Shown here: in pieces, positions 22,633 through 34,444 of the stretch
How positions within the stretch are numbered: position 1 is the stretch's first letter
Layout: every line of letters begins with the position of its first letter
DNA from: an uncultured Pseudomonadota bacterium
Lineage (GTDB): Bacteria; Pseudomonadota; Alphaproteobacteria; RF32; CAG-239
Direction of reading: 5' to 3'
Length of the DNA: 64,000 bases
NCBI GenBank assembly: GCA_902761535.1
Contig: CACWKS010000002.1
Coordinates: 142,418-206,417 of the forward strand
The notes under the pieces: generated by a model
What the model saw: only the letters and a program-made list of their open reading frames with translations
Databases searched by the model: none
What the model was told of the DNA's origin: nothing
Made by a program: the position numbers and the translations under genes

Positions 22633-22818
22633 TGAGTTTCCAATCTTTCTGTAACAAATATCACTACATTAGCAAATTTATGTAAAAAAATATTTAATAA
22701 CCACTTTAAAATTCTTTTATGCGGATTATCTAAATTTTGCCAACCGAATTTACGGTTCGGTTCAGAATAGGACTTTTGTTAAAAATAAACCTATTTATAA
22801 ATGGAGTTTTAAATACAA

Positions 22819-23387
22819 TGAAAAAGACATTATTACTTGCAGGTGTAGCCTGTGCTTTATTATCAACTCAGGCTCATGCAGCCAACTGGTACAATACTAT
22901 GACTAAAAATACCAAAATCTATGTCGGAGCTGATTATGCTTTTGACAGTGTTGATTTCAAAGGTGCATTGCGCGAAGCCAAGGAAGATTATAATTCCGGT
23001 ATTTTTAACATCGGTGCCCGCATGGATTATATGGGCGTTGAGTTTTTCGGTCAATGGGGCTGGGGTGACAGCAAAGATACCCCCGATGGCAAGTTGAAAA
23101 CCAACTTAAATGCCTATGGTATGGATATGTATGGTTATATGCCGCTCGGTTGCGAGGGAAAATATGACATCATCGGAACCGTCGGTATTGCCGATTATTA
23201 TTATAAAGGCTTCATGGGCAACCAAAACGATACCAATAATCATGTCGGTTGGCGTATCGGCGGCGGTGCCATGTATAATATGACCGATCATATTTCCGCT
23301 CGTGTTGTCGGACGTTATGCATATATCGGGGCTTCGGATTTGAATCATGTTGCCGAAGTTACCGCCGGTATGCGTTATAATTTCTAA
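22819..23387 (+). CDS. Outer-membrane beta-barrel protein (Omp25/OmpA-like small porin family)
   Basis: The ORF track starts at 22737; the likely start is MKKTLLLAGVACALLSTQAHA (signal peptide). Alternating hydrophobic strands and a C-terminal ...MRYNF with aromatic final residue. Confidence 0.7.
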
Positions 23388-23410
23388 AACTTGAAGTTTA
23401 ATAACAGCAA

Positions 23411-23447
23411 AAAACCTTGTGCTTTTTTTCAAGCACAAGGTTTTTCG
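23411..23447 (+). terminator. Rho-independent terminator after the OMP gene
   Basis: ccttgtgc-tttttttcaa-gcacaagg hairpin followed by a T-run. Confidence 0.65.
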
Positions 23448-23461
23448 GCATGCTACAACAT

Positions 23462-24025
23462 TTATGCCGCAACATATTGCAATAATACCTCAATCGTTGC
23501 GGGTAATTCTTCTGCTGGTGTCGGGGTTATGTTTACCTTGGGGTTTCTTAAGATCCCCATGCGAAAACCTTTCATCGACATATAATGTCTGATTAGGCCT
23601 CGTTCTTCTTTGTTTAAGCCACACCCTTTCAGGTCAGCTTTGTTCATCATAAACAAATCCAACATCGTGGTTATATTATGATTCTTAAGATGGGAAGAGA
23701 AGGTTTCACCTATAACCCCGTTAATCGGGTACCGGCATTTTTCAGCCGTTTTCGGGGGAACAACTACCACCGACTGACCGAAATATACCGGATCATTGTC
23801 GAGGCTATAAGCTAAAACTTCTTTGGCAACATTGCGAGCCAATGTGGCTGTGTCAACATCCACATCGCCGCTAAAGAATTGCGTAGGACCCAACATATAC
23901 AAAGTATCACTGGTCCTCACAATGCCAGCCAAGGCAATTATTCGCTGTCCAGCCGGAACCGTTGCAGGCAAACCGAGCAGAAAATTTCTTATTTCCCGCT
24001 CGAAAATTTCTTGATTTTTCATCAT
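23462..24025 (-). CDS. Hypothetical protein with a C-terminal RNA polymerase alpha-CTD-like helix-hairpin-helix
   Basis: The C-terminus ADLKGCGLNKEERGLIRHYMSMKGFRMGI parallels the RpoA alpha-CTD sequence [24 protein letters not shown]. GC is moderately above the local average. Confidence 0.45.
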   Translation of the reverse strand: MMKNQEIFEREIRNFLLGLPATVPAGQRIIALAGIVRTSDTLYMLGPTQFFSGDVDVDTATLARNVAKEVLAYSLDNDPVYFGQSVVVVPPKTAEKCRYPINGVIGETFSSHLKNHNITTMLDLFMMNKADLKGCGLNKEERGLIRHYMSMKGFRMGILRNPKVNITPTPAEELPATIEVLLQYVAA

Positions 24026-24151
24026 ATTGAATTTTTTTTATTTATTAATAATTATTTATCAACCATAGAGATTATAGTATTTTGTCAATTTGTCAATAAA
24101 AAATAGCAAAAAATCCTCGCGGTCTTTATTCAAGACGGCGAGGAACAGTTC

Positions 24152-24751
24152 TCAACTTTTAATCACAACTACCAATTCAATAACACAGTCGTTGATGGGG
24201 ACATTAACTTCTGATGCAAACATTCCGAGCTTTGCCTCGTGATTTTTCAAGGCTTGCCTGATTTGTCCCAACAACTTATTGCCGATGTTGGTCAGTCGGT
24301 TCAAATTACCTTCTGAAAAACAAAGCAGTTCACCTATCTTATTGATGTTGCAGGAGTTTAACATTTTTTCTGCAATGACGGAAATATTCCTTTGGTTAAA
24401 ATCTTCTTTTTTGAGAAAATCGGCGATGTTAAGATTCAACAAATCGGAAACATTGTGGGAACATTTGACCGCATTGCAAACGAACATACAATCTCCGTTT
24501 GCTTTCTTTAGTTCGCTGATATCCAAAGCCAATTGTCCCGAAGCAGCCAAAACTGCCCCTAATGTGTTTTCACTTCGTTTGTAAACCATGTTATTGGCAA
24601 AACGACTTTTGTGAACAAGATCGGGAAAAGAAGGATTATGATGCAAAAGAATAACCCAACCTAACATTTGGTCAGATCCTACTTTAGCCTCCAAAAAACT
24701 GAAAATTCTCCGTTCCATTTGTGAAATGTCCTGAGAAACTTGAATTGTCAT
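24152..24751 (-). CDS. Hypothetical protein, paralogous to the upstream gene, with an alpha-CTD-like HhH tail
   Basis: The ORF track gives 24152..24769. The C-terminus ...GNLNRLTNIGNKLLGQIRQALKNHEAKLGM is alpha-CTD-like. Confidence 0.45.
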   Translation of the reverse strand: MTIQVSQDISQMERRIFSFLEAKVGSDQMLGWVILLHHNPSFPDLVHKSRFANNMVYKRSENTLGAVLAASGQLALDISELKKANGDCMFVCNAVKCSHNVSDLLNLNIADFLKKEDFNQRNISVIAEKMLNSCNINKIGELLCFSEGNLNRLTNIGNKLLGQIRQALKNHEAKLGMFASEVNVPINDCVIELVVVIKS

Positions 24752-24891
24752 AATAATAAAATTTATCAAATTAATAATATTAAAACGATGCTATACAAAC
24801 ACAATCTGATTTTTCTGTCAATTATAAACGCCTGATAATCACCAATTATCGGTTTAAATATTAAAACAGCAGATAATTAAATCGGCTTTTT

Positions 24892-26700
24892 TTACTCATC
24901 ACCAATTCGCAAAGCCTCAATAAATGCCGATTGCGGGACTTCCACCTTGCCGAATTGACGCATCCGCTGTTTGCCTTTCTTTTGTTTGTCCAGCAGTTTA
25001 CGTTTGCGGGTAACATCGCCGCCATAGCATTTTGCGGTAACATCTTTACGCAAAGCCGATATGGTCTCGCGTGCCACTACTCGTCCGCCGATACAGGCTT
25101 GCAACGGAATTTTGAACAAATGCCTCGGGATAAGGTCTTTCAATCTTTCGCAGATTTGTCGTCCGCGTGCTTCTGCTTCACTCTTATGGCAAAGAAAAGC
25201 CAAAGCATCAACCGGCTCTTCATTAATCAAAATCTGCACTTTTACCAAATCCGAGGTCTGATAGCTGGTCAATTCATAATCAAAACTTGCATAGCCGGAA
25301 GTTATTGACTTTAAGCGGTCATAAAAATCAAATACGATTTCATTTAACGGAATTTTATAAACCACCATTGCCCGTGAGCCGACATAAGTCAGTTCGACCT
25401 GTTCACCGCGACGCTCGGTGCAAAGTTTTATTACCGAGCCCAAATATTCATCCGGCGTCATAATCGTTGCTTTAACCATCGGCTCTTCAATCGAGGCTAT
25501 TTTCGTCGGATCTGGCATATCCGCCGGATTATGCAAAGTGATAACTTCGCCGTTGGTCATGTGAATTTTATAAGCCACTGACGGAGCTGTGGTAATTAAA
25601 TCAAGGTCAAATTCTCTTCCCAAACGTTCTTGGATAATCTCCATATGTAACAAACCCAAGAATCCGCAACGGAATCCTAATCCCAAAGCCGCCGAATTTT
25701 CATTTTGATAATCAACACTGGCATCATTGAGTTTAAGTTTGGCTAAAGCATCTTTTAGGGCACCGTATTGACTGGAATCCACCGGGAAAATCGAGCAGAA
25801 AACCACCGGCACCGAAGGCTTAAAGCCTTTTAACGGTTCGTCGCAAGGTGATTTGTCGTTAGTAATGGTATCGCCGACACTGCAGTCGCCCACACTTTTA
25901 ATGCTGGCGGTTATAAAACCGACCTCGCCGGGGTAAAGTGCCTCCACATCAGTCATCTTAGGCGAGAATACTCCCACTTTGTCCACCAAATAAGTCGCAT
26001 TGTTGGACATCATGCGAATAGGTGTTTTTTTGCGTAACACCCCATCATAAATACGTACCAAAATAACTACCCCGAGATAGCTGTCATACCAACTGTCAAT
26101 CAATAATGCTTTCAGCGGTTTGTTTTCATCTCCTTGCGGAGCCGGGAGTTTGGTTACGATTTCTTCCAACAAATTGTCAATACCCAATCCGGTTTTACCC
26201 GAAGTTTCAACCGCTTCGGAAGTATCAAGCCCGATAACATCTTCAATCTGTTGTTTAACTTTTTCAACATCAGCAGACGGCAGGTCCACTTTGTTTAAGG
26301 CCGGTATAATCTCGTGATTGTTGTCAATTGCCAAATAAACATTGGCTAAAGTCTGTGCCTCAACGCCTTGTGTTGCATCAACCACCAAAATCGAGCCTTC
26401 ACACGATGACAACGAACGCGATACTTCATAAGAAAAATCCACATGTCCCGGAGTATCAATCAAATTGAGTTGATAAGTTTTTCCGTTTTTTGCTGTATAA
26501 TTAAGCCGCACGGTTTGCGCTTTGATGGTAATACCGCGTTCGCGTTCAATATCCATATTGTCTAAGACTTGCTCCGTCATCTCACGCTTATCCAATCCGC
26601 CGCAACGTTCAATCAAACGATCGGCTATGGTTGATTTGCCGTGATCAATATGGGCAATAATTGCAAAATTGCGAATTAAATTTATATCATGATTACTCAA
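24892..26700 (-). CDS. lepA: Elongation factor 4
   Basis: [17 protein letters not shown] and NKVD GTPase motifs plus the LepA C-terminal domain; 602 aa. Confidence 0.95.
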
Positions 26701-27278: not shown

Positions 27279-27450
27279 ACTGGACAAATGAAATAAACCT
27301 TTTAATCTGTTCAGACCTGGTCGGAATTTTTTTTAAAACATAACATAATACTCATCAAATGATTAACAAAACATAAATATTTATTGCAAAATTTTATAAT
27401 GATTATATTATAAGGCAAATTATTGATAAAGCCACAGGAATTCTTTTGCA

Positions 27451-30400
27451 ATGAATAAAAATTTTTGGTTACTGTTGTTTTTTATTTTATGTTGCCCGGT
27501 ATTGACTTATGCCGGCATAAAAACGATTAATGATACGCCTTATGCCAGTGGCAATTCTGCGACGGTTTCATCCGGATCTTCCGATGATAATTCGTTATCT
27601 GCAAATTCCCCCAAGAGCCAAAATCTTCTTAATTCTTCCAATAACAGCAATGATTCGCAGTCTGATTCCCAAGCTGATGGGGACAGTGACGGAGATGGCG
27701 ATGGAAACGAAACTTATCCTGCCTGTTATTTTTCCGGTTGTGAAAATTATTCTTCTTGCCAATATTATGATATAAATAGTTTGTCTGTGGCAAGCAATTA
27801 TTGCAGTTGTGCCGCCAACAATACGAATATTGCCTTATGTGATTCGCAATTACATTATCACAGCACGGTAAATTACAGCGGCTATGCACGTGGTTTAGGG
27901 GTGAGTGCCGACAGTTCACTGACTTTAGTTTCTGGACAAAACAATTATTATTACCTTTCGAATGTAGATTATTTTTGTCCGGTTAAGTTAAATCTTGCAA
28001 CTTTGGGATATACTCTCAATCCTCTTTCCCAAACTTATTATACTGCAGCCCGTAGTCTGGATTGTGATTATGATTCATCAACCGGAGTAAATTTATTTAG
28101 TTACACAGGTATTAACTGCATTCGCCCCGGTTATGGCATCCGAGATGAACAAATAGTCAATCTTTGTATTTATGGGTGTGAAAACAATCCAAACCCTTAT
28201 GATGATATGTTAAATTATGAGAATCGCCCCAAAGGATTGCAGTTTTGTGACGCATTACGCAATCAACGAGATACATCATCTGCACGTAGTTTTTATTCAA
28301 TGGATAGTTATGATGATTTGCCCGCTGCCGCCTCAACCAAATATTATATGTATCGTCCCAATGTAGCCGCGGCTCCTGATGATTTTGATTATCAACTTGC
28401 TGAATGTGCTATCCGGTGCGGGGTGTCCGGAAATGCTGATATAACTCCTATTTGCCAAGGGTGGTATTATTTGCAAAATTGCAGTTCTTTCACTGCAGCG
28501 GAAGAAGCGGCCGGTTATTATATTTCTCCGCTATACAATTCCTATGCTGAAGCTGTTGCCGCGGCTTCACAAATTTCCTCATTTGACATTTGTTACAATT
28601 TTGATTACATATATCGCAAATCAACCTTTATTCGTTGCGGAATCAAACATAGTGCCGACGCAACCAACGGTGTTTATTCTGAAACCGAATGTCGTACCAA
28701 CAACGGCGTTTGTTCTGATACAGAAGGCGACAATTATACTTGCGGTGGCGAAACCTATTGCAAACGCTGTGTTTGTCAAAGCGGATTGTATACATTAGCC
28801 GAATGGTGTGCCGCCAATAATATCACCGAAGATTGCGATACCGAACATTATAAGGGGCAGGGGAACGGATGTAACTATGACGACACCAGCAGCGACTTGA
28901 GCGGTGTTAAATATGCCTCTTGGATATTAGATCCTGATAATCCCGATAATGTTTGTCAGCCGGAAGGGCAATATGTGGCATTAGAGGACATTTCCGCAGC
29001 GACTGTTGACGAGTTACACAACACTTATGGTCCTTCTGCCCAAATAAGCAAATGTATATCCGACAACACTATGAAATGGCAGATTACCTGCAGCAGCGAC
29101 TATGCATATATTTGCGGCATTGTTGATACTCCGAGCAATTGGTGCACCCATGGACATGATTCTTCCACCACCATGCGCAGTGAGGCGGCTTCTTCATCTC
29201 CTCACAAATATTGCACCAGCGGAACGCTCAGCGGCATTTGCGGAGAATCGATTATAATCTCAAACGGCTCGGGAAGCAGTTTAATCCCTGCCTCTTATGA
29301 TTTGAGAATTTACGAAACGGAATCGCCAGAGCAGTGTTATAACAGGTATGGACGTGCGGCCTCGGTTCAGCCCTGTATTTCTATTGATAATTACGGCTCC
29401 AAATACAATTGCTACTATGATTTGCGAGAATACATTTATTCCACAACCAATGATAACGGAGCGGTAGTCTGTCCGGTTCGCCATGATCTTACCGGAAATT
29501 ATATAGTTCTCAATGGGCAGAAGCGATGGGCGGAATGCAATTGTATGGGGCTTTACGATTACACCATTTACACATGTTCCGGCAACGCAACCGTTATGGG
29601 CAAGGCTTGCACTCAGAATTTATCAAATGTAAATTCATCAAATACGTTAATCAACAAATGGAAAGATAAAGTTCCATATGATCAGGTCAACAATCGCATT
29701 TTGGTAAATTCGGTTGACTTATATCCGTATTGCCAATGCGATGAACGCTTCAAATACACTTGTGATGATAATGAAAGAACGTCACCGCTACCTGACAGTG
29801 CTTATTGTCAAGTTGATGGACGCTATTATTATGAATCTTGTCAGTGTACCAAAGATAGCTTGCCGGATCATTGGTCGGATAATTATTTCAATTGCACTTC
29901 CGGCGCACAACCGACCGGTATCTGGAAAGAAGACGGATGCGGCGGCAAGATGTACCAGTGTTCCGATACCATAGTATGCACGTCCGAATATACTCAAACT
30001 TGCAACGGCACCGGACAAATTGGTGTCAGCGGTTATGGTTGCCAAGATGACGAGGGTGCGTATGTTAAATGGAAAAAGTGTCAGTGCGATACTGCCGGCG
30101 GATGGCATACTTGTTTAGAGGATAATCAAAGCGGTGTAGGTGATCCCTGCATTTCCGGAAATGTTAATTATTATCAGTCTTGCTCATGTCCGTCAGGTTG
30201 GGCAACTTGCGATGACGAGCATATACCGGATTCTTCGGTGCAATCATGTCAAACTGACGATGGGATAATTGTCTATGCCTCTTGCGGCTGTAATAGTAAT
30301 TACAGCGAGTGTAGCGGCAACGGACAGGTTGGAGACACCTCATCGGGCATGTGTACATTAAGCGGCGGCACTACTGTTTATGAAAATTGCATCTGCAAGA

Positions 30401-33102
30401 GTGAGTATGACAAAACCTGTCAAGCTGATTCCTCCAATCACATCCGCGGTGATGACAGCGACGTATGCACCATATCCGGTTCTTCCGGTGAAACCGAAAA
30501 TTATTACAAGAGTTGCCGGTGTGAAGATGGCTATATTTTGACCTGCAGCGCTTCAGATCATTTGGTACCGAAAGACTCGGCCGATTATTGCCAAACTGCC
30601 TCCGGTGAAACCATGTATTATAACGAGTGCGAATGTGCATCCGGATATGATAAAACTTGTGAAGGTCAAACTCCGGCGGATATTAATGATTATTGTTCGC
30701 TTAACGGTGTAAGTTATTATACGGCTTGCACCGGATGTGATGCAGCCAGCGGTTGGATTATCTGCAGCGGAGCCAATCAAATTGGTGACGGACAGACTTG
30801 CACCTTCGACGAAACCACATATTACCAGTCTTGTATATGTCCTTCCGGTTGGACGGTTTGTGACGAAGACCATCAGCCTGATTTATCGGCACAGTCTTGC
30901 CAAACCAGCAGCGGAACCACCTATTACGAAAGTTGCATTTGCAACAGCAGTTATACCGAGTGCGGCGGCAATGGTCAGGTTGGCGACACCTCATCGGGCA
31001 TGTGTGTTATTGATGATGACACCACGGTTTATGAAAGATGTATCTGCAACAGCGAGTATAATCTGACCTGTCAAGCTGATTCCGGCAATCATATCCACGG
31101 CGATGCCGATGACGTATGCTCCATATCCGGTTCTTCCGGTGAACCCGAAAATTATTACAAAACTTGCCAATGCGACGATGGCTATACTTTGAGTTGCAGT
31201 GCTTCAGAACACTTAATTCCGAAAGATGCGGCAGATTATTGTCAAATTGTTATGGATGGAGCAATCCTCTACAACGAATGTCAGTGTGCTTCCGGCTACA
31301 CTTTGACTTGCAGTGACACGGACCATTTAGCTCCGAAAGACGATAGTGATTATTGCCAAACCGCTTCAGGCGAGACCAAGTATTACAACGAGTGTGAATG
31401 TGCTTCCGGATATGACAAAACCTGTTCGGCTGCTGACGGCTTATCTCCGGTTGATAGCAGTGACTATTGCTCGCTTAACGACGTAAGTTATTACACGGCT
31501 TGTACTTGTGATACTTCCGAGGGGTGGGTTATTTGCGACAATAATCAAATCGGCAATGGACCTGTTTGCACCTCCGGCGGCACCGATTATTATCAGTCTT
31601 GCTCTTGTCCGGAAGGATGGGTTACTTGTAACGGCGACCACCAAAGCGGCAACGAACCGGCTTGTATTTCCGGCGGCACCAGCTATTATCAGTCTTGCTC
31701 TTGTCCGGCGGGGTGGGTTGCCTGCGGAACTAACCAAATCGGAAACGGAACGCCTTGCGTATTGGGCGAAACCGAGTATTACCAGTCTTGCTCTTGTCCT
31801 TCCGACTGGACAATCTGTACCGATAACAAGGTCGGCGATCCGTCGTTAGGTTCTTGCACCATTGGCGGCACCACTGTTTATGAAAATTGTATTTGCCCAT
31901 CTCACTGGATTACTTGCGAAACTAACCAAAACGGGGTAGGAGAGGTTTGCACCTCCGGAGGAATTGATTATTATTCGTCTTGTATATGCCCCATTGATTG
32001 GACGGCATGTTCCGGCAATCACATCATTGGTGATCCGTCATCCGGTGCTTGTGCCATCAACGGCTCCACTGTTTATGAAAGTTGTGCTTGCGATTCCGGC
32101 TATACCGAAAACTGCTTAAATCAAGCTCCGGTTGATGAAAATGATTATTGCTCGCTCAACGGTGTAAGTTATTATACCGCTTGCACCGATTGTGGTGATG
32201 TAGTTAAGAGGTACGATTGCGGAGAGCGCGACGCAGGTCCGATTAACTGTATTCAAAGTTATTGGGATGGAACTATACAGACAACTTACGCTTCTTGCGA
32301 TTGCTCAATACCGGAGATATATGATGGTCGTAGAAACACTGAGGCAATTATCAGAGAGACTCCCCGTGGTGAATTTGCAGCTGATGTCGCTTATCAATAT
32401 CATCCTTCAAATCTTTCTCTATTGGATAATAATTTCGGTATTGGCCGTTGGTATCTTCCTGCTTATGGAGAAATGTATCAAATGGTTAATGTTATAGATA
32501 CCGTTAATTCAGGAATTTCAGCCGTATCCGGCGAAGTGATGTATCCAGATATATCGTATTGGAGCTCATCTGAAGTCGATATGTGGTATAGTATCAAGGT
32601 TTCTAAACAAAATGTAACATATCATTATGTTGATGAACAAGAAAAAAGAATACCATGCATATTTCGCATAGTTACTCTCTTAGAAAACAAACTGCCGGCA
32701 ACTTCTTTATCTAATATTGCCGGTGCCGCCGTCGGCGATGTGGTCTATAGTGACCTGACTTATGACAGCTATACCAATCCTCATTCTGACAAAACTCCGG
32801 TCGGAGTGGTCTATTGGGTTTCCTCTGACAAATCTCGTGTGCGTATAGTTTCTCCTAATCAGCCCAAAATGCTGCCCTGGGGTTGGGGTGGATTTTATAC
32901 TTACGTGAAGCTGGAGGATGTACCCACTGAAGTAGGTGAATGGGAAATGGAAAGTCAAATGTGTTGGGACGATAATCAAAATGAATATGAGTGTTATGAG
33001 GTTGATGGTGGTATAGATATCACAGGTATTAAGAATTTAGGATCGAACATGTTTAACGACGGTATAGGTTGTACTTCTACGGAAATTCTTGACAATCTTT
33101 AG
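27451..33102 (+). CDS. Giant secreted cysteine-rich tandem-repeat protein (1883 aa) with more than 30 EGF-like 4-Cys modules and a distinct C-terminal domain
   Basis: Signal peptide MNKNFWLLLFFILCCPVLTYA. A S/N/D-rich linker including DGDSDGDGDG. About 1100 aa of repeats of the form C-x6-11-YY-x2-C-x-C-x2-G-[WY]-x2-3-C. A Cys-poor C-terminal domain of about 300 aa. Confidence 0.85.
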   Translation: MNKNFWLLLFFILCCPVLTYAGIKTINDTPYASGNSATVSSGSSDDNSLSANSPKSQNLLNSSNNSNDSQSDSQADGDSDGDGDGNETYPACYFSGCENYSSCQYYDINSLSVASNYCSCAANNTNIALCDSQLHYHSTVNYSGYARGLGVSADSSLTLVSGQNNYYYLSNVDYFCPVKLNLATLGYTLNPLSQTYYTAARSLDCDYDSSTGVNLFSYTGINCIRPGYGIRDEQIVNLCIYGCENNPNPYDDMLNYENRPKGLQFCDALRNQRDTSSARSFYSMDSYDDLPAAASTKYYMYRPNVAAAPDDFDYQLAECAIRCGVSGNADITPICQGWYYLQNCSSFTAAEEAAGYYISPLYNSYAEAVAAASQISSFDICYNFDYIYRKSTFIRCGIKHSADATNGVYSETECRTNNGVCSDTEGDNYTCGGETYCKRCVCQSGLYTLAEWCAANNITEDCDTEHYKGQGNGCNYDDTSSDLSGVKYASWILDPDNPDNVCQPEGQYVALEDISAATVDELHNTYGPSAQISKCISDNTMKWQITCSSDYAYICGIVDTPSNWCTHGHDSSTTMRSEAASSSPHKYCTSGTLSGICGESIIISNGSGSSLIPASYDLRIYETESPEQCYNRYGRAASVQPCISIDNYGSKYNCYYDLREYIYSTTNDNGAVVCPVRHDLTGNYIVLNGQKRWAECNCMGLYDYTIYTCSGNATVMGKACTQNLSNVNSSNTLINKWKDKVPYDQVNNRILVNSVDLYPYCQCDERFKYTCDDNERTSPLPDSAYCQVDGRYYYESCQCTKDSLPDHWSDNYFNCTSGAQPTGIWKEDGCGGKMYQCSDTIVCTSEYTQTCNGTGQIGVSGYGCQDDEGAYVKWKKCQCDTAGGWHTCLEDNQSGVGDPCISGNVNYYQSCSCPSGWATCDDEHIPDSSVQSCQTDDGIIVYASCGCNSNYSECSGNGQVGDTSSGMCTLSGGTTVYENCICKSEYDKTCQADSSNHIRGDDSDVCTISGSSGETENYYKSCRCEDGYILTCSASDHLVPKDSADYCQTASGETMYYNECECASGYDKTCEGQTPADINDYCSLNGVSYYTACTGCDAASGWIICSGANQIGDGQTCTFDETTYYQSCICPSGWTVCDEDHQPDLSAQSCQTSSGTTYYESCICNSSYTECGGNGQVGDTSSGMCVIDDDTTVYERCICNSEYNLTCQADSGNHIHGDADDVCSISGSSGEPENYYKTCQCDDGYTLSCSASEHLIPKDAADYCQIVMDGAILYNECQCASGYTLTCSDTDHLAPKDDSDYCQTASGETKYYNECECASGYDKTCSAADGLSPVDSSDYCSLNDVSYYTACTCDTSEGWVICDNNQIGNGPVCTSGGTDYYQSCSCPEGWVTCNGDHQSGNEPACISGGTSYYQSCSCPAGWVACGTNQIGNGTPCVLGETEYYQSCSCPSDWTICTDNKVGDPSLGSCTIGGTTVYENCICPSHWITCETNQNGVGEVCTSGGIDYYSSCICPIDWTACSGNHIIGDPSSGACAINGSTVYESCACDSGYTENCLNQAPVDENDYCSLNGVSYYTACTDCGDVVKRYDCGERDAGPINCIQSYWDGTIQTTYASCDCSIPEIYDGRRNTEAIIRETPRGEFAADVAYQYHPSNLSLLDNNFGIGRWYLPAYGEMYQMVNVIDTVNSGISAVSGEVMYPDISYWSSSEVDMWYSIKVSKQNVTYHYVDEQEKRIPCIFRIVTLLENKLPATSLSNIAGAAVGDVVYSDLTYDSYTNPHSDKTPVGVVYWVSSDKSRVRIVSPNQPKMLPWGWGGFYTYVKLEDVPTEVGEWEMESQMCWDDNQNEYECYEVDGGIDITGIKNLGSNMFNDGIGCTSTEILDNL

Positions 33103-33129
33103 TTAATGCCCTCTGCCCAAATTATTAAC

Positions 33130-34410
33130 CTGTCATGCCTGAGCAACTGAAAGTTGCGAATAAGGCATCTTCGAAAAAAAAACTGTCATGCCTCAATCGG
33201 CGAAAACAAAACGACCAAACCTGTCATGCCTCAATCGGCGCCAGTCCGATTGATAAGGCATCTTCGAATTTTTTAAAAATTCGTAGCCCCCTTATTCGCC
33301 TCATTTTATTCGGCTCAGGGGTGACATTTAAAAAAACTGTCATGCCTGAGCGGTTGCAAACCGCGAATAAGGCATCTTCGAAAAAAAAACTGTCATGCCT
33401 CAATCGGCGAAAACAAAACAAGTAAGGGGATAAGAGGGGATAAAATACTTCCTTTTTTGCTTTATTAAAAAAAATAATTCGAAGATGCCTTACTCCACTC
33501 ACTTCGTTCGTTTCGGGCATGACATTTTATATTTAAACTGTCATGCCTGAGCGGTTGCAAACCGCGAATAAGGCATCTTCGAATTTTCTCTTGTAAAAAC
33601 CTATTTTATGAAATATAATCAACTTTATGAAAGAAATGTATGTTTATATAATGACCAATAAAAATAATACCACATTATATATCGGTGTTACGTCTGATTT
33701 AGTCCGTCGGGTTTATGAACATAAAAACGGCATTTTTAAGGGCTTTACTTCTGAATATAATTTAAATAAGTTGGTGTACTATGAAATAATTGATGGTGAA
33801 ACTCAAGCCATTGAACGAGAAAAACAACTTAAAAAATTTTATAAAGATTATAAGAAACGTCTTATTACAGAAAAGAATCCTTCATGGCAAGACTTATATT
33901 CTGAAATTTGCAGTGAGTAGTAAAAATAATTCGAAGATGCCTAACTCCGAAATATAACTTGTCACCCCTGAGCAACTGAAAGTTGCGAATAAGGGGTCTA
34001 CGAATTTGCCCTTCCCCTTGCAAGCAAGGGGATAAGAGGGGATAAAATACTTCCTTATTTTTACTTTATTAAAAAATAATTCGAAGATGCCTAACTCCGT
34101 TCGCTAACGCTCACTACGGGCATGACATTAATATTTTTTCTCAGGGTTTGGGATTTATGAGTAAAGCGGAAAAAGCAAATATTAAATCGGCTGGCAGTAT
34201 TTCTTTATGCGGCTTACGTCGCGCGCTTTAGTGTGTAAGTTAAGCCGCAGCCTTATGCCGTTTTAATATTTGCCCGCTTTGCGAATATCCCAATGACTTT
34301 TGGTTACTTTTTGTTGCCAAAAAGTAACGCAAATATAAATATAAAAATAAAAATAATTCGAAGATGCCTTACTCCGTTCGCTCCGCTCTCTTAAGGGCAT
34401 GACATTAATA
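33130..34410. repeat. Dense cluster of at least 12 copies, in both orientations, of a 45-60-bp hairpin element family. The core is tgtcATGCC-[internal hairpin]-aataaGGCATcttcgaa, with variants.
   Basis: Copies sit at about 33130-33175, 33184-33214 (partial), 33221-33268, 33278-33328 (reverse variant), 33337-33382, 33389-33420 (partial), 33479-33526 (reverse), 33538-33584, 33925-33950 (reverse, partial), 33957-34003 (CCCC/GGGG variant), 34062-34133 (reverse) and 34340-34405 (reverse). Auxiliary motif aaggggataagaggggataaaatacttcc occurs twice. Confidence 0.85.
33627..33920 (+). CDS. GIY-YIG (URI-domain) nuclease family protein, COG2827-type small endonuclease
   Basis: YVYIMTNKNNTTLYIGVTSDLVRRVYEHKNG matches the GIY-x10-YIG signature, including the conserved R and the E of EHK. 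The likely start is the MYVYIM Met at about 33636. Confidence 0.75.
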   Translation: MKEMYVYIMTNKNNTTLYIGVTSDLVRRVYEHKNGIFKGFTSEYNLNKLVYYEIIDGETQAIEREKQLKKFYKDYKKRLITEKNPSWQDLYSEICSE

Positions 34411-34444
34411 TTTAACCTGTCCTTCCCAAAAACAAAAATAAAAC

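Follow-up and report, generated by a model that had tools for sequence, protein, structure and literature searches.

Two adjacent genes on the minus strand of a 64,000-nucleotide stretch of DNA from an uncultured alphaproteobacterium (contig CACWKS010000002.1, positions 142,418 to 206,417; hereafter the window, meaning the whole stretch analysed) encode remote paralogues, here called A and B. Both proteins join an orphan N-terminal domain to a module that is homologous, at the level of sequence profiles, to the helix-hairpin-helix (HhH) C-terminal domain of the RNA polymerase alpha subunit RpoA (the alpha-CTD), and their family, which is small and lineage-restricted, has the three branches A, A' and B. 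Recruitment of bacterial RNA polymerase by activators and UP elements proceeds mainly by docking on the alpha-CTD. The domain is known; what is new is its architecture with an orphan N-domain and the tandem array of paralogues. We hold the homology and the architecture to be highly probable. The overall reading that we favour is more tentative, with a probability of roughly 0.45: the proteins would be cytoplasmic accessory factors associated with transcription, using the alpha-CTD fold as a contact module and acting as hetero-oligomers of an A-type protein with B. The genes and their parts are as follows.

24152..24751, minus strand: gene A, 199 amino acids from the ATG at 24751, with N-domain, alpha-CTD-like (HhH)2 module and strand-like tail.
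24452..24751, minus strand: N-terminal domain of gene A, amino acids 1-100, homologous to the N-domains of A' and B.
24221..24400, minus strand: alpha-CTD-like (HhH)2 module of gene A, amino acids 118-177, with Pfam, NCBIfam, PDB and hhalign matches.
24155..24220, minus strand: C-terminal tail of gene A, amino acids 178-199, ending in CVIELVVV and conserved across A, A' and B.
23462..24025, minus strand: gene B, remote paralogue of gene A, 187 amino acids from the first ATG at 24025.
23549..23725, minus strand: degenerate alpha-CTD-like module of gene B, amino acids ~100-158, recognised by homology to the A/A' module.

The open frame of gene A extends from a TTG (24152-24769, 205 amino acids), and its start was set by three homologues (P0001-P0003), each of which begins with MT[IV]QVSQ, corresponding to the ATG at 24751; residue numbers given here for gene A refer to the 199-residue protein and are 6 lower than those of the 205-residue open reading frame (ORF). 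The homologues of gene B all begin at its second methionine (24022), which would give a protein of 186 residues. A preliminary description of this DNA had placed two genes of 187 and about 199 codons between an outer-membrane protein (OMP) gene and lepA, and both minus-strand open frames are indeed present there at those sizes, save for the one residue in B implied by its homologues.

Several kinds of profile comparison place the gene A module with the alpha-CTD. Residues 122-169 match the Pfam model of this domain (PF03118) with 23.3 bits and an E-value of 5e-5, just under the gathering cut-off of 23.8 (scores of 23.3-23.5 were obtained); all seven A and A' members match the same model at E<=1, the best with 1.1e-5, and the relatives P0002 and P0003 bear a precomputed PF03118 match. 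The NCBIfam rpoA equivalog models also match gene A (E 1e-6) over their last ~60 positions, with 27 bits against cut-offs of 230-430. When a profile of four gene A sequences was compared with the PDB, 31 of the 34 matches were RpoA (best 6wmp_A, 3.4e-5, and 9n9p_A, 7.8e-5), and the profile of the 14-sequence family alignment (A4) found the Helicobacter pylori alpha-CTD as its best match (2max_A, E 2.9e-8), with RpoA making up 49 of 60 among the matches listed and all of the top 42. In line with these searches, hhalign paired the Escherichia coli alpha-CTD (a reference verified as residues 249-329) with the gene A module at 93-95% probability and with the C-terminal part of the family at 95% (E 2.8e-8). 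By these comparisons the gene A module is homologous to the RpoA alpha-CTD at profile level and borderline at the Pfam cut-off; for gene A the profile-level homology bears out the preliminary description. No family member has a Pfam match to the RpoA N-domain (alpha-NTD), and the family proteins are therefore not RpoA; in place of the alpha-NTD, the module is joined to an orphan 100-residue domain and a conserved tail.

A gapless mapping, which agrees with the HMMER alignments, pairs N122-M177 of gene A (~56 residues) with residues 261-316 of the E. coli protein, whose numbering is used below. The hydrophobic core of the alpha-CTD is conserved in the module, and equivalents of Gly279, Gly296 and Lys298 are present in all A and A' proteins; Asn294 is likewise present, save in two A' members that have Gly, and the Leu314-Gly315-Met316 motif is found in the three closest A proteins and is variable in the A protein of locus L015 and in A'. 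Gene A itself thus shares the core, all four of these residues and the LGM motif with RpoA. It differs from RpoA, as does the rest of the family, at the positions by which the alpha-CTD recognises its targets. The equivalent of Arg265 is Ile or Val in every A and A' protein (Ile126 in gene A), that of Asn268 is lost across the family (Lys, Gln, Ser, Thr and others) and that of Ser299 is Leu, Met or Arg in A and A'; taken together, the UP-element DNA determinant (Arg265, Asn268, Cys269, Ser299) is one that the family does not share. Furthermore, neither the acidic 261 patch, which contacts sigma, nor the 287 patch, which contacts CAP, is conserved in the family.

These differences bear on the proposal, made in the preliminary description, that the proteins are free alpha-CTD mimics competing with RpoA for UP elements or activators, which would damp activated transcription. 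Genuine alpha-CTD homology speaks for such decoys, and a presumed A/B pair, with its two modules, would resemble RNA polymerase with its two alpha-CTDs. However, the determinant around residue 265 is gone, the sigma and CAP patches are unconserved and B lacks both hairpin glycines. Because Arg265, Asn268 and Ser299 are lost, a decoy for UP elements in particular is unlikely, and competition with RpoA for these sites finds no support here; across both kinds of target we consider the decoy proposal improbable.

The module of gene B is, judging from the alignments, a degenerate copy of the same module. Searched alone against Pfam, gene B has no alpha-CTD match; it matches SAM_EPH (PF22993) with 23.3 bits, under the cut-off of 27 and over 37 residues only, and sub-threshold SAM_EPH matches occur in four B-branch proteins. 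SCOP places SAM domains and the alpha-CTD in one 'SAM domain-like' fold class, and it is to the A/A' module, rather than to SAM_EPH, that B is tied by homology: the C-terminal parts of A+A' and of B, compared alone by hhalign, align with 91% probability (E 1e-6). An eight-sequence B profile has RpoA alpha-CTDs as its two best PDB matches (E 0.005 and 0.088), and the C-domain of B only, set against the E. coli alpha-CTD by hhalign, gives an E-value of 0.002 at 13% probability. In all B proteins both hairpin glycines are lost, Gly279 being replaced by Leu, Ile or Ala and Gly296 by Asn, Ser or Cys; the position of Asn294 holds Gly or a gap, Lys298 has an equivalent in P0006 only, Arg265 is replaced by Thr, Asn, Glu, Pro or Lys, Asn268 and Ser299 are also lost, and the equivalents of Leu314-Gly315-Met316 are variable. 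An alpha-CTD-like HhH, which the preliminary description had assigned to both proteins, is accordingly well founded for A, while for B it follows from homology to A' together with weak direct profile matches. The peptides quoted there are present (residues ~130-158 of B and 148-177 of A), but they do not form the protein ends, since a tail of 21-28 residues comes after them.

The two proteins are joined by the third branch, A', which is carried by related metagenome contigs. Direct BLASTP between gene A and gene B detects no similarity (E 0.5), and a first hhalign comparison of the two on shallow alignments was insignificant. With independently built alignments, hhalign pairs A with A' over the full length at 99.2% probability (E 1.5e-19) and A' with B at 96.3% (E 1.6e-9; residues 11-189 against 8-163), and the direct comparison of A with B is collinear, at 61% probability and E 8e-5. 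The N-domains of A+A' and of B, compared alone, give 91% probability, E 1e-6 and a score of 39, whereas in 100 column shuffles the score averaged 10.4 +/- 1.9 and never exceeded 15.4; because the score lies far over this null, we regard the similarity of the N-terminal halves as true homology. The N-domain of gene A also matches that of A' (E 2.4e-9). A and B are thus homologous over their whole length as far as profile comparison can tell, both transitively via A' and directly. That the adjacent genes are paralogous, with weak mutual similarity in their N-terminal halves, had been noted beforehand; both points stand at profile level, although a pairwise BLASTP alignment does not reveal them.

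Every member has the same layout, with an N-domain of ~100 residues, an alpha-CTD-type module of ~60 residues and a tail of ~20-28 residues. The ordered features common to the branches begin with an N-terminal helix (I..FL) and a strand (GW.LI.R in A/A', IALAGIVRT in B), and continue with a helix (..LA..), a strand (VYF), the alpha-CTD-like module and a terminal hydrophobic motif. The module ends in G-[IVM]-L-[KR]-x-P in A' and B and in GMF/AML in A, and the terminal motif reads VIELVVV in A, with VLELQVV and, in B, IEVLLQYVAA as further forms. For the N-domain (amino acids 1-100), searches of Pfam and the PDB gave nothing consistent at a threshold as loose as E<=10, and no signal peptide or membrane segment was seen by eye in the family proteins. 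In a low-confidence AlphaFold2 model of gene A the tail is drawn as a strand, and we infer that the terminal motif might return to the sheet of the N-domain. A metal site formed by C88, C92 and C97 of gene A was also considered and dropped, as these cysteines are not conserved in the L015 A protein or in B.

Alpha-CTD-like stretches outside RpoA are matched weakly by residues 124-186 of gene A. One is NCBIfam NF005841/PRK07758, a 95-position model named 'hypothetical protein' (13.4 bits against a cut-off of 115), and the other is an HhH segment of PglW, a BREX kinase (10.9 bits against 990). With an N-domain and a tail of its own, the family is a member of neither; it also lacks the kinase and the other parts of PglW, a Ser/Thr kinase of ~1400 amino acids, and no BREX genes were found near genes A and B. 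The remark in the preliminary description that free-standing alpha-CTD-like proteins are uncommon was overstated, as PRK07758 and the PglW segment are already in the libraries. To our knowledge, alpha-CTD copies outside RpoA have been annotated in databases and almost never studied, and a search of the literature on stand-alone alpha-CTD-like proteins found no description of such proteins.

A different comparison is offered by the competence co-activator Sxy of E. coli, which has 209 amino acids and combines TfoX_N with an HhH-type TfoX_C domain placed in the alpha-CTD superfamily (bioRxiv 10.1101/284836). The family proteins resemble it in size and layout only, having ~200 residues and, in order, an alpha/beta N-domain and a C-domain of HhH type. 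If this likeness reflected kinship, they would be distant co-activators of the TfoX/Sxy type, and the shared size and domain order would be explained. Yet none of the 14 members has a Pfam match at E<=1 to TfoX_N (PF04993) or TfoX_C (PF04994), and hhalign of the family against Sxy, or against Sxy with VP1028/3bqt, gives at most 0.6% probability for either domain, compared with 95% for the alpha-CTD, to whose type, and not to that of TfoX_C, the module belongs. Membership of the TfoX/Sxy family is largely refuted by these results, and we give this explanation hardly any credence.

The family is found in one chromosomal slot of a few uncultured Alphaproteobacteria, running from lepA to the OMP gene, a UDG-family gene and rnf. 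The flanking genes in the window are as follows.

24892-26700, minus strand: lepA, adjoining the gene A side of the pair.
22815-23387, plus strand: OMP_b-brl gene, convergent with gene B.

Beyond the OMP gene lie the UDG-family gene, a sulfatase gene and the rnf operon. Among 5.8 billion proteins, three homologues were found for A and two for B, and an exhaustive search of 1.84 billion representatives with the B profile returned only seven clusters of ~180 amino acids; two sequences from the search of representatives, P0011 and P0013, are repetitive and of low complexity and were treated as spurious. One GTDB species genome has the pair (metagenome-assembled genome CAMOLN01), and all other members lie on metagenome contigs, several of them from sheep-rumen data sets; a metagenome scan with A' returned solely a contig identical to L015 in this region. 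The family profile found no further copy elsewhere in the 64-kb window, and rpoA was not found in the window or in the related loci examined.

An A-type gene of ~200 codons always lies directly upstream of a B-type gene in this slot. The window and L001-L007 carry A and B, L010-L014 carry A' and B, and L015/L019 carry A, A' and B in tandem (L015:1143-3099; same region L019:1052-2332). Because the L015 lineage holds all three genes in tandem, gene content suggests that a three-gene array is ancestral, with A' lost in the window and L001 and A lost in L010 and L014; B is retained with at least one A-type gene in each genome. In L010, six extra genes (a 190-codon gene, a cupin gene and four small opposite-strand ORFs; L010:4421-7071) separate lepA from A', so the linkage of the family to lepA is not fixed, whereas that to OMP-UDG-rnf is. 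Searches by tblastn and of IMG/VR found no phage, plasmid or IMG/VR relatives, and the pair is not mobile.

Compared with its neighbours, the family evolves far more rapidly. Identity among B proteins is 27-53% between loci (78% in the closest pair) where the OMP and UDG proteins share 76-92%; between the window and L010, for example, B is 32% identical, OMP 78% and UDG 84%. The ratio of nonsynonymous to synonymous substitution rates (dN/dS) between the window and the syntenic locus L001 is 0.30 for gene A and 0.21 for gene B, compared with 0.014 for lepA, 0.07 for OMP and 0.12 for UDG, and gene A in the window against L007 gives 0.23. Genes A and B are real genes under selection, as dN/dS values of 0.2-0.3, syntenic homologues and their own intrinsic terminators attest.

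Such rapid change could indicate a conflict-related or otherwise fast-evolving accessory system, such as a sensor of, or decoy for, alpha-CTD-targeting phage proteins, or another form of defence. The low identity of B and the elevated dN/dS relative to the neighbours fit this explanation, as do the differential loss of A or A', the existence of a decayed variant (described below) and the weak matches to the HhH segment of PglW. However, relaxed constraint explains fast evolution equally well, PADLOC gives no family beyond that PglW segment (best E 1.7e-4; gene A 0.026), phage and plasmid relatives are lacking, and the slot is stable, with housekeeping genes on both sides and no defence-island or mobile context. 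A role in conflict is, in our view, very doubtful.

Each family gene appears, from its terminator and upstream boxes, to be its own monocistronic transcription unit. The elements around the pair are listed here.

24816..24821, minus strand: TTGACA box of gene A, 70 nucleotides 5' of the gene A start, invariant in 5/5 aligned A/A' upstream regions.
24770..24778, minus strand: ATTATTAAT box of gene A, ending 18 nucleotides before the start codon.
24098..24144, minus strand: intrinsic terminator of gene A, a hairpin of 12 pairs with a T-run behind it; the stretch 24144-24114 folds at -19.2 kcal/mol, z -4.7.
24078..24096, minus strand: TTGACAAATTGACAAAATA, two TTGACA boxes directly 3' of the gene A terminator and upstream of gene B.
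24044..24052, minus strand: ATTATTAAT box of gene B, ending 18 nucleotides before the first ATG.
23408..23447, minus strand: terminator after gene B, between the convergent B and OMP genes, from a terminator scan; -29.5 kcal/mol, z -8.5.

The hairpin and T-run are kept 3' of the A-type gene in all related loci. TTGACA stands ~63-70 nucleotides upstream of the family gene starts, the first such box upstream of gene B being invariant in 6/7 intergenic regions, and it occurs within 120 nucleotides upstream of only 2/55 other window genes. The second box has the family form AT[TA]ATTAAT, with the core palindrome TTATTAATAA, and is positioned 12-19 nucleotides 5' of the start codon in 11/13 family genes, compared with 1/55 other window genes; over the whole window it occurs at 4 sites, with 4.1 expected by chance. 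In five aligned lineages the order before family genes is the terminator of the upstream gene, TTGACA, the AT[TA]ATTAAT box and the start, and this arrangement persists in loci whose proteins share only ~30% identity. As this layout is common to the family genes, the duplicated unit would have comprised promoter, gene and terminator. The boxes may belong to a promoter, serve as an operator or signal translation initiation. Upstream of gene B there is also a perfect TATAAT 14 nucleotides after the first TTGACA, an unusual spacing.

If the boxes were operators, the proteins could be DNA-binding autoregulators that recognise the ATTATTAAT box (core TTATTAATAA), the TTGACAAA repeats before family genes, or both. 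The position of the box before nearly all family genes, kept where the proteins have diverged so far, is what such a role would predict. (HhH)2 domains generally bind DNA backbones, the A and B modules of the window are basic (isoelectric point 9.4-9.6) and the Gly296/Lys298 hairpin is kept in A/A', all of which would suit DNA binding. On the other hand, Arg265 and Asn268, the minor-groove readers of the alpha-CTD, are absent, module charge is unconserved (-1 to -2 in P0003, L014 A' and P0006), the box occurs across the window at chance level, and it might just as well be a -10-like promoter element, or an AT-rich region for translation initiation, duplicated with the gene. We therefore rate autoregulation as unlikely.

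The reading that we favour, of accessory factors associated with transcription, may be outlined as follows. The proteins would be cytoplasmic and would serve as accessory, non-essential factors of transcription or the nucleoid, in which the alpha-CTD fold is probably used for protein-protein or non-specific nucleic-acid contact rather than for reading UP elements. The orphan N-domain and the C-terminal strand would form an oligomerisation or effector domain, and the degenerate B would act with an A-type partner as a hetero-oligomer held together by N-domain and tail. A specific version of this arrangement is a hetero-dimer of an A-type protein and B, formed via the N-domains and displaying two tethered alpha-CTD-like modules (a 'pseudo-alpha dimer'). 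Such a dimer would capture factors that dock on the alpha-CTD, such as activators, sigma region 4, NusA-type partners or phage proteins, or alternatively would bridge AT-rich DNA at its own promoters; if true, it would amount to an undescribed layer of transcription control in a small clade of gut and rumen Alphaproteobacteria. We think this version quite unlikely in its details.

A number of observations weigh against the accessory-factor reading. The net charge of the module ranges from -2 to +4 among members. AlphaFold2 models built on shallow alignments of four and three sequences reached a predicted local distance difference test (pLDDT) score of 35 and 39 and are unusable, and because of this low confidence any statement on how the N-domain folds or the tail docks is a guess. 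The co-occurrence of A-type and B genes, moreover, comprises ~5 independent lineages within one clade and with inherited synteny. Covariation of charge between A and B had been considered as a sign of partnership and was dropped, because the A-B correlation of charge and isoelectric point (0.84) is equalled by the OMP control (0.86). Finally, L016-L018, three runs of one study, show a decayed variant (L016:2-963) in which A' is stopped after ~residue 80 and the chimeric ORF P0012 passes from the A' HhH region into B, entering the latter at ~residue 60; this looks like a deletion or recombination between paralogues. The decayed variant implies that the system is dispensable and may simply be decaying.

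Whatever their role, the proteins represent an alpha-CTD module that was exapted: it now forms part of a separate family, duplicated and fast-evolving, that lacks the canonical DNA-reading arginine. Should they act on transcription, a new class of small accessory factor would be defined; otherwise they would be an example of a polymerase domain reused for another purpose. The practical weight of the finding is limited, as the family occurs in a handful of uncultured genomes and has no link to a phenotype.

The base composition of the locus is unremarkable. GC content is ~0.42-0.45 in gene B and ~0.35-0.39 in gene A, compared with 0.39 over the whole window and 0.43-0.46 in lepA, and the slight elevation mentioned in the preliminary description is no anomaly.

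Some other features of the window and of related loci were observed along the way. A second lineage-specific paralogue family without a Pfam match (FKVYKV...EREWYHGY) sits between a GNAT gene and a giant Cys-rich gene in related loci (L001:6793-7401; L010:718-1329 and 1363-1857) and has no copy at the corresponding place in the window (27279-27450, intergenic). The giant gene in the window (27451-33102, plus strand) encodes a protein of 1883 amino acids that starts with a signal-like segment and carries Cys-rich repeats (YYxSCxC...) by the dozen; Pfam yields no match for it, and its 1692-residue counterpart in L001 has a weak Lcl_C match only. The following 1.3 kb (33103-34444) are without a large ORF and hold an internally repeated small ORF (33135-33425), in which the peptide ...ANKASSKKKLSCLNRRKQN.. 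occurs twice, and an ORF of 97 codons (33627-33920) that is GIY-YIG-like in appearance.

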